The position numbers and the translations under genes are program-made. From a virus (taxonomy: Duplodnaviria > Heunggongvirae > Uroviricota > Caudoviricetes), in IMG/VR virus record IMGVR_UViG_2617270991_000003: 23,312 nt of DNA; one strand, written 5' to 3'. Within the stretch, counting starts at the first letter, position 1, and the number at the start of each line of letters is the position of its first letter. Shown one piece after another: positions 2,533-20,633 of this stretch. The notes beneath the pieces were generated by a model, which had not been told where the DNA came from, searched no databases, and saw nothing but the letters and a program-made list of their open reading frames with translations.

Positions 2533-3090
2533 TCAACAATGAATTTTTAGCAATTGCTCCACAGTCATATTTTTAATTGCGCTCCGGTTTACAAGAGTCC
2601 ATCCTTGTTTCTCCAGATAAAACCGGAAGGTATCCAGGGTGCAGACCATTGCGCCGTCAGGAACGGTTTCAGTGAATTTGATATTGCCGTGTTCGTCGAG
2701 ACGGATAACCAGGGTGCGTCCGTCCCCGTGAATCATTTTGTCGGGAGACGGGGCGTTATTCTGGCGCAGTTCTTCCTCCATGCGATCGAACTCAGCGATG
2801 TAGGCTTCTTTGAAAGTTGCGGCTTTTTTACCTGTGAACCCCATCACCAGGAAAACGAAGCCGTTTTTGGTGATTTGGTACATGGGGCGTTTTTCGCCTT
2901 TGGCGTCGGTGTAGGTAACGGGCGTAAAATTGCGCTCGTTAAAATCTTCAGAGCATTCTAGCGTTTCAATTTTGCGCAGAACGTCCTTGTGCATTTTGCG
3001 GAAGAACTCTGCAACCGCAACAGACGTAGTGACAGCGCGACCATTTTCGATGGTTACGTCAGGGTGAGAAAGGGTAGGGATAGTAGCCAT
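2533..3090 (-). CDS. rha: Rha-family phage regulatory protein (185 aa)
   Basis: MATIPTLSHPDVTIENGRAVTTSVAVAEFFRKMHKDVLRKI...KNGFVFLVMGFTGKKAATFKEAYIAEFDRME fits the Rha domain pattern; ATG at 3090 with AGAGG RBS. The track ORF extends in frame to 3387 but that extension contains an intrinsic terminator. Confidence 0.7.
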   Translation of the reverse strand: MATIPTLSHPDVTIENGRAVTTSVAVAEFFRKMHKDVLRKIETLECSEDFNERNFTPVTYTDAKGEKRPMYQITKNGFVFLVMGFTGKKAATFKEAYIAEFDRMEEELRQNNAPSPDKMIHGDGRTLVIRLDEHGNIKFTETVPDGAMVCTLDTFRFYLEKQGWTLVNRSAIKNMTVEQLLKIHC

Positions 3091-3257
3091 AATGGCAGCC
3101 TCTTGGTTGAGTATTAATAACTCACCACCAAGGTTTTCCACGACCATAAGGGTGGTGAGGCGTACAGGGGTGGAAATACCGGTCAACCAAGAATCCGGCC
3201 AGCCTTGCAGCTGCCCTGCACGCCCCACCATAATCTGAATGTGGCTGTGCTTGACGC

Positions 3258-3282
3258 ATAAAAAAACCGCCTGAGCGCGGTT
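3258..3282 (-). terminator. Rho-independent terminator (leftward transcription) just upstream of rha
   Basis: Minus strand reads AACCGCGCTCAGGCGG followed by TTTTTTTA: short GC stem (CCGC/GCGG) plus a 7-nt U-run. Confidence 0.5.
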
Positions 3283-3564
3283 ATGCGCTTGATTGAATTC
3301 CGGGTTTCCACGCCCGGCACCCGTTTTATGAGGTGCAGGAGCACTATAATTCCACCCGTTCTGGTTTTCAATAGCTACATTCAACATTTTCTCTTACCTT
3401 TCATCACCGAAGTGAACTTTGTTGATGCGGTGCCTGGTGCCTCCAGGTGACGTTAACCAGTTAACAATTAACGCCGGATACAGAGAATCCACCCATAACA
3501 CTGTTTTTGGTTTTAACTGTTCCGCGTGCGCTTAGCCGCATTCACCGCATCACAAAATTCACTT

Positions 3565-3622
3565 TAAAAAGGGTGGCAGAGCAGTCACGGAGTAGAACTG
3601 ATGCCACCAAAGACTACACATG
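3565..3622 (-). ncRNA. dicF: DicF-like small RNA (3' hairpin and terminator conserved)
   Basis: Minus strand TTTGGTGGCATCAGTTCTACTCCGTGACTGCTCTGCCACCCTTTTT closely matches my recollection of E. coli DicF 3' two-thirds (..TTTGGCGGTATCAGTTTTACTCCGTGACTGCTCTGCCGCCCTTTTT), with compensatory GGCGG/GCCGCC to GGTGG/GCCACC changes preserving the stem; sits between ydfC-like and dicB-like genes as in Qin. Confidence 0.6.
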
Positions 3623-3944
3623 GGTATTGTGGCGGGGCTGTCACTTAAGCGTATGGTCAACCTGACAACCCGGTGCATTTTCTGGAGCAATGGAGGAAAC
3701 CCCAGCCATACTTACCGCCGCGCCATTTCGCGGAGTGCCACAACCGGAAGCGCACGGTCGAACTAAATTTAACGACACCGTACAGAGAGACCAATTTCGC
3801 CGTGCGCTTTCGCGTTATGCCCTGACTTTTCAGGGACATATCCTTTCAGTAAACTGTCAGTGCCGGATGTTCACCCGTGTCCGGCGCACGCACTCCACCT
3901 GACCCGTGGAGAACTCCTTAATTACCAACCCTCAGGAGGGTGAA

Positions 3945-4223
3945 ATGGATAAAAAGCAAATTGAGGCCCTGCAATCTATTATTGAAAAACAAGATGAAGC
4001 TATCAGGATTCTTTCATATCGCACTGATATGATACTAAATATGCTTTCTGCATTAACGGCTGCGCTTGGTGGTACAAAAACAAACGTATACCGCGAAGTT
4101 GTTATTCAACAGATAGATAAATTTGAAAAAACCATACCAGGTATTAATGCTCATCTTGCAGAACAAGAGAAAGACCATGCTCTTATGGCAATTTCTTCAG
4201 TAGCTCTCCCGAAAGTTGAGTAG
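3945..4223 (+). CDS. Hypothetical protein (92 aa), convergent with and overlapping the 3' end of the 133-aa minus-strand gene
   Basis: ATG at 3945 preceded by AGGAGG with 6-nt spacer; clean ORF MDKKQIEALQSIIEKQDEAIRIL...; AT-rich codon usage unlike neighbours; no recognisable domain. Confidence 0.5.
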   Translation: MDKKQIEALQSIIEKQDEAIRILSYRTDMILNMLSALTAALGGTKTNVYREVVIQQIDKFEKTIPGINAHLAEQEKDHALMAISSVALPKVE

Positions 4224-4584
4224 TTTTAATTGTTGTTTTGAAATAATCACTGCTTTCACATTTGAGTGATTTCATGGCAATCCAAATGCGGGCCTCTGTG
4301 CCTGCATTTGGTTCCAGTTGCTGTAGACGTTTTGCGTCTTCCAAAAGTAAGGCGATAATGTGTTTCAGCTTCTCATCATTTGCTTGATTCTTGTTTTCAG
4401 GCGAATTCTGTCCGCCGAATAGGCGCTTCTCTTCATACAGACCTATAAAGGCACGACGCACGTTACCGGATATAGTATCGATGGTTTCCTTTTCTACAGT
4501 ACTCAGGTCAAGAGTCGCCAGTTGAGAGCGAACCACATTCGCTGCCATTTCCTGGAATGGCATTGGTAAATCTTTAAATTCCAT
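4183..4584 (-). CDS. Hypothetical protein (133 aa)
   Basis: Track ORF; ATG at 4584 with GAGG RBS 8 nt upstream; plausible protein MEFKDLPMPFQEMAANVVRSQLATL...; no domain recognised. Confidence 0.55.
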   Translation of the reverse strand: MEFKDLPMPFQEMAANVVRSQLATLDLSTVEKETIDTISGNVRRAFIGLYEEKRLFGGQNSPENKNQANDEKLKHIIALLLEDAKRLQQLEPNAGTEARIWIAMKSLKCESSDYFKTTIKTTQLSGELLKKLP

Positions 4585-4606
4585 TATTAGCCTCGTTGGT
4601 TAGCTA

Positions 4607-4825
4607 TTAACGTGGGTATGTAACCATTCTGGCAATGCTTAATGCCGCTGCTTTTTCCAGCCTGGTGATATCCTGCTCCAGAGCGGACAGATTTTCAGCC
4701 TGCTTAGTCCTGGCTTCATTGGCCCATTTCAGATCCTGCGCTGCATTAATTTTCTGGTGCATCCACTCATAAAGTTCATCATCGGTATAGTCTGGCGCGA
4801 TGATGACGGGTTCTCGTTTCTGCAT
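4607..4825 (-). CDS. Small hypothetical protein (72 aa), YdfC-like by size and position
   Basis: Track ORF; ATG at 4825 with GAGGAA RBS 7 nt upstream. Confidence 0.55.
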   Translation of the reverse strand: MQKREPVIIAPDYTDDELYEWMHQKINAAQDLKWANEARTKQAENLSALEQDITRLEKAAALSIARMVTYPR

Positions 4826-4984: not shown

Positions 4985-5140
4985 TCACTCACCTGAGTTT
5001 CTTTCCAGCCAGCGACGGGCACCATTTTCGGTTTTAAACGTTTTGCTTTTGGTATACGTCATCGCGGTGAATGTGCCGTCCTGGTTGGGAAACACGCCGT
5101 ACACCAGAGATTCGTTGTTGCCAAGCTCGATAGTATCCAT
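4985..5140 (-). CDS. Small hypothetical protein (51 aa), YdfA-like by size and position; first gene of the leftward early operon
   Basis: Hand-found ORF: MDTIELGNNESLVYGVFPNQDGTFTAMTYTKSKTFKTENGARRWLERNSGE; GAGGT RBS 6 nt upstream of ATG at 5140. Confidence 0.5.
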   Translation of the reverse strand: MDTIELGNNESLVYGVFPNQDGTFTAMTYTKSKTFKTENGARRWLERNSGE

Positions 5141-5393: not shown

Positions 5394-5855
5394 CTACTGG
5401 TTACGTTTCTTTAGTGCCAGCATGTTCTCGAAGGCTTCCTCGTAGAGCTTGTTTAGTCCACGTAGCTGGTTAAGGAGTTTGGCTTTTTCTGACGCAGGTA
5501 GAATCTCGAAGAGGTTAAGTAACTCTGCCTGTTCTTCATTGACCAGCCTCCATCCTTTGCCTGAAAAGTTATCATCATAAGTATCTGATGATCTTACATA
5601 ATTCATTAAGTCTTTAAGGTCTTCTCGAATGTCCTCTGGTTTTACCTTTAACAGAGCCGCAAATTTTAGCGCAGCGTCGGTATTTACCGGTATCTTGCCG
5701 TTCAGATACTGGCTAACGGTGCCTTGAGATTCGAATCCCAACAACTCAGCCGCCAGCTCTTGAGTCAGCTTCAGCTCTTTTTTTCTTGCATTCCATGCGG
5801 CTTTTAAATTCTTGTTCGCTTCTGGAGTTGCAATCACTTCGCGTGTTTTTTTCAT
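5394..5855 (-). CDS. Prophage repressor, HTH (XRE-type) N-terminus, no LexA-like S24 peptidase domain (DicA/RacR-like, 153 aa)
   Basis: Track ORF; HTH signature LTQELAAELLGFESQGTVSQYLNG; C-terminal helical tail ..EEQAELLNLFEILPASEKAKLL.. resembles DicA C-terminus as I recall it; no Ala-Gly/Ser..Lys autocleavage motifs; divergent from a cro-like gene. Confidence 0.75.
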   Translation of the reverse strand: MKKTREVIATPEANKNLKAAWNARKKELKLTQELAAELLGFESQGTVSQYLNGKIPVNTDAALKFAALLKVKPEDIREDLKDLMNYVRSSDTYDDNFSGKGWRLVNEEQAELLNLFEILPASEKAKLLNQLRGLNKLYEEAFENMLALKKRNQ

Positions 5856-12706: not shown

Positions 12707-12882
12707 TGCAGCGGGTGCTTGAGGCTATCTGTCTCAGGCATGAACACCAAAAGGCAGATAGAGAAAAGCCCCAGTTAACATTACGCGTCCGGCAAGACGC
12801 TTAACATTAATCTGAGGCCATATCTATGCTCTACACACGTAGGTTAGCCTCTTACGTGCCGAAAGGCAAGGAGAAGCAGGCT

Positions 12883-13038
12883 ATGAAGCAGCAAAAGGCG
12901 ATGCTAATCGCCCTGATCGTCATCTGTTTAACCGTCATTGTGACGGCACTGGTAACGAGGAAAGACCTCTGCGAGGTACGAATCCGAACCGGCCAGACGG
13001 AGGTCGCTGTCTTCACAGCTTACGAACCTGAGGAGTAA
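12883..13038 (+). CDS. hokD: Hok/Gef-family type I toxin (51 aa), HokD/RelF-like
   Basis: MKQQKAMLIALIVICLTVIVTALVTRKDLCEVRIRTGQTEVAVFTAYEPEE has the Hok family signature (TM helix, LTRK.LCE.R); track ORF 12826-13038 is an in-frame upstream extension (mok-like reading frame). Confidence 0.75.
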   Translation: MKQQKAMLIALIVICLTVIVTALVTRKDLCEVRIRTGQTEVAVFTAYEPEE

Positions 13039-19527: not shown

Positions 19528-19603
19528 GGCCCTTTAGCTCAGTGGTGAGAGCGAGCGACTCATAATCGCCAGGTCGCTGGTTCAAATCCAGCAAGGGCCA
19601 CCA
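19528..19603 (+). tRNA. tRNA with anticodon CAT (Met-type; in phage context probably tRNA-Ile2 read as AUA after lysidine modification)
   Basis: Hand-folded cloverleaf: acceptor GGCCCTT/AAGGGCC, D-arm GCTC..GAGC, anticodon loop CTCATAA, T-arm GCTGG-TTCAAAT-CCAGC, 3' CCA; 76 nt. Confidence 0.8.
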
Positions 19604-19610
19604 TCACATA

Positions 19611-19687
19611 CCGCCATTAGCTCATCGGGATAGAGCGCCAGCCTTCGAAGCTGGCTGCGCGGGGTTCAAGTCCCCGATGGCGGTCCA
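19611..19687 (+). tRNA. tRNA-Arg, anticodon TCG
   Basis: Hand-folded cloverleaf: acceptor CCGCCAT/ATGGCGG, D-arm GCTC..GAGC, anticodon stem CCAGC/GCTGG with loop CTTCGAA, T-arm CGGGG-TTCAAGT-CCCCG, 3' CCA; 77 nt. Confidence 0.7.
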
Positions 19688-19893: not shown

Positions 19894-20140
19894 CAGTTAC
19901 CCGTTGAAATTTTTAAATACCTCACAATTCCACAGCTTGATGATTGTCTGGCTGCCGGAGAATTTGTTAAAAATTACATCGCATGGTGAATCCCCCTCAG
20001 CGGCGGGGCATCTGGCAAAGTGTATGATCCAGAGAACATGCAAATTCAGTAGACAGGCTGAATTTACCGGGAGGCCCCTGGCACCATGCGACAGACAGAA
20101 ATTAGGCTATACTTCAGCCCCTCTCCGGAGGGGCTTTTCT
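19894..20140 (+). repeat. Structured repeat, copy 1 (about 247 bp), ending in an intrinsic terminator; candidate sRNA or processing/termination module
   Basis: Conserved blocks shared with copy 2: TTGTCTGGC, GTTTGTTAAAAA, GCATGGTGAATCCCCCT, CTGAATT(T/C)ACCGGGAGGC.CC.GGCACCATGC, AGCCCCTCTCCGGAGGGGCT; GCATGGTG and CACCATGC can pair as a long-range helix. Confidence 0.5.
20116..20140 (+). terminator. Rho-independent terminator at the end of repeat copy 1
   Basis: AGCCCCTC-TCCG-GAGGGGCT perfect 8-bp hairpin followed by TTTCT. Confidence 0.55.
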
Positions 20141-20329
20141 GTGCAGGATGTGTCACAGTTTCCTGAATTCTGAGTACTGTCCTGTTACTCAGGGTGCTAT
20201 ATTTTCTGACGTGATGAAAGTCTGCCGGAAGGCGGAACGTATCGGAAATGACCCAGTAGAGAAAACGTTGACTCAGATACCGATGCTGAGTTACCGGGAA
20301 ACCGGCATCACATGACCGCTATCCTTCCA

Positions 20330-20352
20330 GGCTCGCTCCGGCGGGCCTTTTT
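20330..20352 (+). terminator. Rho-independent terminator between the two repeat copies
   Basis: GGCTCGC-TCCG-GCGGGCC hairpin (one G-U pair) followed by TTTTT; same TCCG loop as the repeat terminators. Confidence 0.5.
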
Positions 20353-20363
20353 ACTGCAGAAAA

Positions 20364-20605
20364 CAGTTTTCCCGTAAAATGCCACGTTGCTCATAATTCA
20401 GGCTGGCGATTATTGTCTGGCCGGCGGGAAGTTTGTTAAAAAATTTCGCATGGTGAATCCCCCTGTGCGGAGGGGTAATCAGCGAGTAGGTATATGGGAT
20501 AATCGCGGATTCAGGTGCTGGTACTGAATTCACCGGGAGGCACCCGGCACCATGCAATGGCACATAGCGCCACTCTCCAGCCCCTCTCCGGAGGGGCTGT
20601 TTATA
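20364..20605 (+). repeat. Structured repeat, copy 2 (about 242 bp), ending in an intrinsic terminator
   Basis: Aligns with copy 1 across 5' and 3' conserved blocks, with a divergent middle segment. Confidence 0.5.
20579..20605 (+). terminator. Rho-independent terminator at the end of repeat copy 2
   Basis: AGCCCCTC-TCCG-GAGGGGCT hairpin followed by GTTTATATT. Confidence 0.5.
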
Positions 20606-20633
20606 TTGATTTTGTCAGATGTGAGTAAACTGC

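Follow-up and report, generated by a model that had tools for sequence, protein, structure and literature searches.

A small gene set backwards in the early-left operon of an Escherichia coli dicBF-type prophage, and the slot of alternating genes in which it lies

The overlapping gene pair and its operon

The DNA discussed here, which we call the window, is the whole stretch of 23,312 nt in the IMG/VR record IMGVR_UViG_2617270991_000003. It is a lambdoid Qin/dicBF-type prophage of E. coli, and over 1.7 kb it is 100% identical to several chromosomes, for example NZ_CP026723. We are concerned with two small genes that overlap at their 3' ends in its early-left operon. The operon is read on the minus strand, and genes on the plus strand at this site are referred to as reverse genes. 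The features, in the order of the operon, are these:

5394-5855, minus strand: HTH repressor, the first gene in the minus-strand order
4985-5140, minus strand: DUF1391/YdfA-like gene, after the repressor and before ydfB
minus strand: ydfB, between the DUF1391/YdfA-like gene and ydfC
4607-4825, minus strand: ydfC (RefSeq annotation, phrog_1744), upstream of the slot
3931-4586: accessory cassette of 656 bp, between ydfC and the dicBF leader
4183-4584, minus strand: minus ORF of 133 aa, with an ATG start and GAGG at 4591-4594
4183-4223: convergent 3' overlap of 41 nt, common to both ORFs
3945-4223, plus strand: plus ORF of 92 aa, with its ATG at 3945 and stop at 4221-4223
3933-3938, plus strand: Shine-Dalgarno sequence AGGAGG of the plus gene, 6 nt ahead of its ATG
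3623-3930, minus strand: long untranslated leader of the dicBF operon, about 300 nt, the conserved right-hand flank of the slot
3571-3622, minus strand: DicF sRNA (Rfam RF00039, 61.1 bits)

Past DicF the minus-strand order continues with a truncated dicB fragment, a Rha/Ash gene with C4 and isrK RNAs, an intact dicB and a DUF1482 gene. The Rha/Ash gene with its two RNAs is a second insertion, which splits the dicB leader in the window.

An earlier note on this DNA had given the same ORF coordinates and lengths, the AGGAGG ribosome-binding site and the 41-nt overlap, and a check of the ORFs and the sequence bears it out; what it had called a DicF-like sRNA is the Rfam match listed above. It had also described the plus gene as AT-rich and as the only plus-strand gene in a leftward operon. 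The GC content of the plus ORF is 36-37%, whereas the window as a whole has 48.8% and the leader next to the ORF 54.5%, and the annotation agrees that the ORF is the sole plus-strand CDS from the excisionase to the repressor. Both proteins are labelled hypothetical in RefSeq (WP_000358771.1, WP_000394529.1).

The dicBF operon is described in the literature as ydfABC, a long leader, DicF and dicB only (PMC5069750). The Qin operon and the window have in common a ydfA-like gene, ydfB, ydfC, the leader, DicF and dicB in that order, but Qin is without the gene pair, which in the window is inserted at the junction of ydfC and the leader. In alignments the cassette is a clean indel with respect both to Qin of K-12 and to phage Tritos, in each of which the ydfC stop region runs straight into the leader. 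Its ends are 14 nt before the plus ATG and 2 nt past the minus ATG. The leader itself is conserved in Tritos, K-12, the PPompW prophage and the Salmonella elements L090/L091.

The earlier note's view of the pair as accessory, inserted between ydfC and DicF, is thus well founded: the 656 bp are missing from these two close relatives, and of 5426 complete E. coli genomes no more than 127 (2.3%) carry the cassette, 126 of them at 99% identity or more. Parts of the surrounding operon, taken as a 1.7-kb query, are present in 4613 genomes. The contrary case, in which the two genes would be core genes of all dicB-type operons, is not what is seen, the pair being absent from K-12 Qin and Tritos; there are many dicBF operons, these two included, in which the ydfC/DicF slot holds no reverse gene of any kind.

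The two proteins

We use the name RevA for the 92-aa product of the plus gene. Homologues in E. coli share 99% identity with it, those in Salmonella 82, 73 and 71%, and those in further Salmonella elements 47 and 44%, and it is 28% identical (pairwise E = 9e-6) to the 91-aa reverse gene product of a sister cassette, B1, which is described below. AlphaFold2 models RevA as a three-helix protein (helices at residues 3-40, 46-59 and 69-85; pLDDT 80, pTM 0.67), and it is predicted to be a soluble helical protein. It has no hydrophobic stretch of membrane-spanning length and does not resemble the hydrophobic peptides of type I toxins.

The plus ORF might be no gene at all, but a chance ORF antisense to the operon. 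It has no clear promoter, it has no Pfam family (there is no match even at E = 10), and tblastn of RevA against deposited phage genomes gave no match, all of which can be read in that way. However a comparison with the Salmonella copy of 72% identity gives a dN/dS of 0.15-0.23 for the annotated frame, as opposed to 0.31-2.75 for the five others, the Shine-Dalgarno sequence is strong, the full-length homologues extend down to 28% identity in different contexts, RevA matches phrog_18692 along its full length, and the AlphaFold2 model is a confident one. As the dN/dS is lowest in its own frame and the 41-nt overlap is found in three unrelated prophage backbones, the ORF goes beyond what chance would give. 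The comparisons indicate that the plus ORF is a real gene under purifying selection as a protein; they already contradict the chance reading, to which we attach almost no probability.

The 133-aa protein of the minus strand is modular:

4420-4584, minus strand: N-terminal module, residues 1-55 (MEFKDLP...GLY)
4261-4380, minus strand: second head module, residues 69-108 (ELKHxIALLLEDAKRLQQxEPNAGTEARIW), from an exhaustive HMMER search
4186-4260, minus strand: tail, residues 109-133, predicted to be disordered (pLDDT below 50)

Relatives of the minus ORF numbered 263 in one search and 109 in the exhaustive search. The N-terminal module heads proteins with at least four unrelated C-terminal continuations, Stx phage proteins among them; a scan of species-representative genomes with this module gave only two loci, both in E. 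albertii. Dozens of clusters at 50% identity consist of small phage proteins that begin with the second head module and vary in their tails. The median dN/dS of this module is 0.07 at a dS of 1.2 (35 haplotypes), which indicates strong purifying selection at the protein level. The AlphaFold2 model has two helical hairpins (residues 8-56 and 65-106) with a disordered linker and tail, and the last 13 codons of the gene are the antisense of the C-terminus of the plus gene. The 133-aa gene is therefore best described as two widespread and strongly conserved phage head modules followed by a borrowed, disordered tail.

Neither protein obtains a functional name from Pfam, NCBIfam, PADLOC or PHROGs. 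The statement in the earlier note that both lack recognisable motifs stands for Pfam, NCBIfam and PADLOC (RevA has no significant PADLOC match), but not for PHROGs, as both proteins fall in PHROG families: RevA in phrog_18692 and the 133-aa protein in phrog_1363, both families without a function, and the two halves of the latter protein match different PHROGs. Sequence searches of the PDB with both proteins gave nothing below E = 0.5. Foldseek searches with both models against the PDB and BFVD gave one match with E below 0.01, between the N-terminal module and a 52-aa uncharacterised protein of phage phi191. No publication on either of them came up in literature searches, whether by accession or by topic.

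Exchange of partners and of cassettes

The plus gene is an independently mobile accessory gene. Genes of the RevA type keep the 41-nt overlap opposite the 133-aa protein and three other convergent partners:

window: the 133-aa protein
L087, a Rac-like Salmonella prophage: a stand-alone head protein of 71 aa
L168, E. coli: a head protein of 67 aa
L090-L092, Salmonella elements with a P2-type switch: an HTH protein of 171-191 aa

In the HTH protein only the last 22 or so residues resemble the tail of the 133-aa protein. From the retention of the 41-nt overlap with exchanged partners it follows that the mobile unit is the plus gene together with about 66 nt past its stop, and the overlap and an 'S-x-ELL' tail recur with different partners because the adjacent leftward gene reads into these 66 nt.

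The slot is also filled in other ways. We retrieved 80 IMG/VR loci with the N-terminal module, which divide as in the first four lines below; the last three lines are further types.

type A, the cassette of the window: 28 of 80 loci
type B1: 14 of 80 loci, with a 91-aa reverse gene, a distant relative of RevA, and an overlap of 23-32 nt
type B2: 6 of 80 loci, with a 73-aa reverse gene and an overlap of 11 nt
solo type: 32 of 80 loci, the head gene without a reverse gene
type D: a 133-aa protein at 88% identity, next to another reverse gene, of 56 aa, with a hairpin between the two
two-TM type: a 148-aa reverse gene product with two TM segments in the slot
PPompW prophage type: a 135-aa and 77-aa pair with an overlap of 23 nt

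Identity between PPompW and the window is limited to about 50 N-terminal codons of the minus gene and to the Shine-Dalgarno sequence of the reverse gene, the rest having been replaced. The stretch CTCAGGAGGGTGAA, which includes AGGAGG, is identical in the PPompW cassette, and the reverse ORFs diverge from the ATG onward. The gene with the N-terminal module pairs in all with at least five other reverse genes. We considered a strict co-variation of the reverse gene with the type of C-terminal domain, and rejected it, as it is contradicted by type D and by the HTH partner.

A wider survey drew on IMG/VR, metagenomes and deposited phages for loci that contain the second head module, where there was enough downstream sequence. 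A convergent ORF of at least 40 aa, overlapping the head-module gene or ending within 120 nt of it, lies behind 52 of 56 distinct genes, a count in which some singleton reverse ORFs may be spurious. Single-linkage clustering gives about ten groups, most of them families with a Shine-Dalgarno sequence, from E. coli, Salmonella, Cronobacter phage phiES15, Aeromonas phage pAEv1818 and metagenomes. The two largest are the family of the plus gene and a family of about 95 aa in phiES15 and pAEv1818, which has a 30-nt overlap. One member of the latter scores 21.2 bits against the Pfam GhoS model, for which the cut-off is 21, and the profile of the family did not retrieve GhoS, a type V antitoxin, from the PDB. 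Among the remaining cargo are a Zn-ribbon family, which matches Lar below threshold, and the two-TM protein, with a weak match to SLATT. No relationship was found by hhalign between the RevA family and three other reverse-gene families.

At least six unrelated small reverse genes take one another's place here and, in other phages, next to the same head module. Their site is a slot with exchangeable content, in which the gene always lies antisense to the early-left operon and overlaps or abuts the 3' end of a head-module gene.

These data bear directly on the suggestion in the earlier note that the pair is a dedicated antisense module, in which one product would be a toxin or an effector and the other would give immunity or act as antitoxin, under control through the 41-nt overlap. 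Several observations are as such a module would have them. The convergent overlap is conserved in three backbones, B1 holds a distant homologue of the plus gene that again overlaps its neighbour, the constant N-terminus with variable C-termini resembles that of polymorphic effectors, and one family of reverse genes in the same slot reaches the GhoS threshold. However the plus gene joins unrelated partners, an HTH protein among them, the head gene has at least six unrelated reverse genes as neighbours and in 32 of 80 loci none at all, and the part of the 133-aa protein that co-varies with the plus gene is the disordered tail, which is merely its antisense. There is no toxin, antitoxin, membrane or defence signature: among the toxin and antitoxin models of Pfam, NCBIfam and PADLOC none matched at its cut-off, the best being RelB-like in NCBIfam (15.9 bits, with a cut-off of 50), and there is no hydrophobic peptide of type I kind. 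With regard to polymorphic toxins, the variable C-termini that do exist are short stretches, disordered in part, for which no toxin family gave a match, and there is no downstream immunity gene in the same orientation, the neighbour being on the opposite strand in every cassette. We therefore think a dedicated pair quite unlikely, and the evidence favours an accessory slot of the moron or sieB type over a toxin/immunity pair.

Expression signals, comparable systems and the nature of the slot

The expression signals of the reverse genes seem to be placed in the conserved flanks. The candidates in the window are:

4282-4311, plus strand: hairpin of 12 bp (CCAAATGCGGGC-CTCTGT-GCCTGCATTTGG), antisense to the PNAGTEARIW codons of the second head module
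3860-3911, plus strand: two leader hairpins upstream of the plus gene, from alignments of three prophage backbones
3827-3855, plus strand: candidate weak promoter TTTTCA-N17-TAAACT, 8 of 12 positions, inferred by eye

The hairpin at 4282-4311 lies 59 nt 3' of the plus stop, in a region with a fold z of -4.2, and has a poor U tract. Its stem shows constraint at synonymous sites: at the four-fold codons only 5 of 110 deviate from the major codon, against 43 of 108 outside the stem in the same 22 haplotypes, and in 24 of 26 haplotypes the 30-mer has its more stable form in the plus sense, that of the reverse gene; these haplotype statistics ignore shared ancestry. We regard the hairpin as a candidate for the 3' stem-loop, or the terminator, of the reverse transcript. 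The B-type cassettes have on the reverse strand AAGGGGUUC-UAUUC-GAAUCCCUU followed by UCUUUUUCAUU, which is a textbook intrinsic terminator, and it is antisense to the KKKGIRIEPL codons. Its stem is shortened or weakened in the solo type, which has no reverse gene, and is kept in L064 despite amino-acid changes. The hairpin at 4282-4311 is the type A equivalent of this terminator, and in both cases there are hairpins within conserved coding sequence of the operon strand whose best fold is that of the reverse strand.

On the other side of the slot, about 130 nt with the two leader hairpins and the Shine-Dalgarno sequence are conserved in all three backbones, and the region of the leader hairpins folds better in the plus orientation (z of -2.2) than in the minus orientation (-0.05). 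A scan for sigma-70 promoters upstream of the plus gene in the window, L087 and L090 gave no match of at least 9 of 12 positions. The candidate promoter at 3827-3855 would start an RNA at the foot of the first leader hairpin.

Conserved signals of this kind could also mean that the reverse transcript is what matters, and its protein is secondary. Transcription of the plus unit would then be a cis-acting antisense insulator, colliding with leaky early-left transcripts or forming an RNase III substrate with them, and so shielding the lysogen from DicF and DicB, in analogy with the oop RNA of lambda, which acts on the cII mRNA. The unit is placed directly upstream, in the operon sense, of the toxic DicF/dicB part, the convergent overlap is constant while the reverse coding sequence is interchangeable, and the reverse-strand hairpins are conserved, all of which would fit. 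But the plus ORF is under clear purifying selection at the protein level and its family is kept down to 28% identity, and many dicBF operons, those of K-12 Qin and Tritos among them, manage without a reverse gene. We consider an insulator of this kind unlikely as the main role of the unit.

The accessory-slot reading has a close parallel in Rac of K-12, in which the order is racR <- ydaG <- ydaF (DUF1391) -> sieB <- KilS sRNA <- kilR; the KilS sRNA has been described (PMC8175672). In the window the order is repressor <- DUF1391 <- ydfB <- ydfC <- 133 aa -> 92 aa <- leader-DicF <- dicB. The two orders match, and the plus gene therefore occupies the position of sieB. Each is the lone rightward gene inside a leftward early operon, after small DUF1391-type genes, and so antisense in the early-left operon beside the immunity region, and each has next to it, in the operon sense, an sRNA (KilS or DicF) with a cell-division inhibitor behind it (kilR or dicB). 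Both overlap their neighbour at the 3' end, sieB by only 4 nt with ydaF and the plus gene by 41 nt. However SieB, superinfection exclusion protein B, has 162 aa and matches PF14163 at 109 bits, while the 92-aa protein does not belong to PF14163 and has no sequence or fold relationship to it. Of the idea that the pair is a superinfection-exclusion module, the positional part thus stands, and there is no SieB/PF14163 or defence-family match to go with it; an exclusion role of the plus gene may be suggested by positional analogy with sieB only.

Morons, a concept reportedly due to Hendrix and colleagues, are said to be extra genes of lambdoid phages that have their own expression signals and are present in some relatives only. 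The plus gene is like them in that it is missing at the same site in close relatives, has a low GC content and an orientation independent of its surroundings, and is followed by a terminator-like hairpin. Classical morons bring their own promoter and terminator. The signals of the plus gene, in contrast, are apparently in the conserved flanks, its 3' hairpin is inside the coding sequence of its neighbour, and it overlaps that neighbour.

The accessory and defence hotspots of P2- and P4-like elements have conserved flanks and variable cargo. The slot resembles them in its conserved flanks and in its alternative, unrelated cargo, which includes SieB of Rac and the two-TM protein with its weak likeness to SLATT, but differs in that its cargo consists of single genes of 56-148 aa, antisense in a lytic operon, with no recognised defence system among them, PADLOC giving no significant match for RevA. 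Lambda oop/cII and the type I toxin-antitoxin pair txpA/RatA are 3'-overlapping antisense pairs, and in the window too the convergent 3' ends overlap by tens of nt, so that an RNA duplex is possible; unlike those systems, both partners in the window code for proteins of about 100 aa, there is no small hydrophobic toxin, and the pairing is not obligatory.

The explanation that we find best overall is that of a small mobile accessory gene plugged backwards into a fixed and reusable slot in a prophage early operon, and we would give it slightly better than even chances. The conserved flanks would act as an expression socket, with a leader and Shine-Dalgarno sequence on one side and a 3' stem-loop or terminator within the coding sequence of the neighbour on the other. 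The plus gene would have a transcript of its own in the lysogen, in which the DicA-type repressor silences the early-left operon. As the two transcription units converge and overlap, only one of them should be active at a time: the accessory gene would be shut off on induction, and its transcription would impede leaky reading of the operon towards DicF and DicB. For the 92-aa protein our best guess, made from its position and the neighbours in the slot, is a function that benefits the lysogen or acts in conflicts between phages.

A broader proposal can be made, but only tentatively, and we think it rather less than likely to hold in full. It is that temperate phages of Enterobacterales and Aeromonas share a one-slot early-left socket, in which a head-module ORF hides the terminator or 3' stem-loop of the convergent gene, the leader gives the start signals, the cargo is exchanged by homologous recombination and is expressed in the lysogen as antisense to the operon, and the pair in the window is one filling. 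A socket that recurs in this way, its terminators lying inside a conserved head ORF, has apparently not been described before; the pair itself is an ordinary uncharacterised accessory cassette.

For the window the analysis is a caution against annotation of the pair as a toxin-antitoxin system. Early-left operons of the dicBF and Rac types are among the most widespread prophage remnants of E. coli and carry the toxic DicF, DicB and KilR. If the slot is a general exchange point, it would account for a family of phage ORFs with an ultra-conserved start and a hypervariable end, it would be a concrete case of a coding sequence doubling as the terminator of an opposing gene, and it would give a defined place in which to seek new exclusion or regulatory proteins expressed in the lysogen.

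The slot, its cargo and the terminators within coding sequence

In K-12 Qin and in Tritos the empty site of the cassette is a short stretch that is imperfectly palindromic, TAACCAAC-N9-GTTGGTAA, and in the window the palindrome arms flank the cassette (3922-3929 and 4595-4602). The slot can carry other cargo, and in one retrieved locus we find:

L082 2954-3400, minus strand: alternative slot cargo, a protein of 148 aa for which two membrane helices are predicted

In PADLOC this protein weakly matched the DRT-system SLATT domain (E = 0.002).

Within the operon-strand gene of the window there is an inverted repeat (4282-4311, plus strand) that encodes the conserved peptide PNAGTEARIW, and these codons form a 12-bp hairpin, which folds more stably in the sense of the opposing gene. 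The stem shows unusually little synonymous variation: 5/110 four-fold codons deviate from the major codon, as against 43/108 outside the stem, counted over 22 haplotypes with shared ancestry ignored. The sister cassettes have a canonical intrinsic terminator for their reverse gene, antisense to the KKKGIRIEPL codons of the operon-strand gene:

L012 2700-2760: terminator of the reverse gene
L066 2740-2800: terminator of the reverse gene

It is weaker in a sister variant that has no reverse gene.

A second insertion in the operon

The operon that carries the cassette has a second accessory insertion, at 2533-3501, and with its flanks it comprises:

2334-2522: dicB, intact, on one flank of the Rha/Ash gene
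2533-3387, minus strand: Rha/Ash-family gene
3148-3235: C4 antisense RNA, within the insertion
3260-3336: isrK, within the insertion
3418-3501: truncated 5' fragment of dicB, on the other flank

The insertion looks like a c4/ant immunity module of the P1/P7 type. The same C4 and Ash module adjoins the plus-gene homologue in the Salmonella elements L090-L092.

DicF, its leader and other RNAs

The DicF of the window (3571-3622, minus strand) differs from that of K-12 in its first ~14 nt, lacks 14 nt immediately upstream relative to K-12, and has an Rfam score of 61 bits, where the PPompW copy reaches 76.7; on these grounds its target range might differ from that of K-12 DicF. Salmonella elements L090 and L091 retain the ~300-nt dicBF-type leader, and at the DicF position (L090 4621-4638, minus strand, and its equivalent in L091) have a different stretch, with a terminator at its end consisting of GCGGGAATGGAATCCCGT followed by ACTTTTT. 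Possibly this stretch is a different sRNA that takes the place of DicF; in Rac it is KilS that occupies the same relative position.

The Rfam search also covered the prophage beyond the operon, and in three regions (12713-12888, 19528-19684 and 19951-20608, listed jointly) gave a sok antitoxin RNA of the hok/sok type, two tRNAs and two tandem copies of the STnc100 sRNA.

Antisense to the dicBF leader we find:

3827-3855, plus strand: weak promoter-like sequence

It is present also in the cassette-less Qin of K-12 (NC_000913.3, about 1649130-1649142, minus strand), and if active would yield RNA antisense to the region of the DicF precursor.
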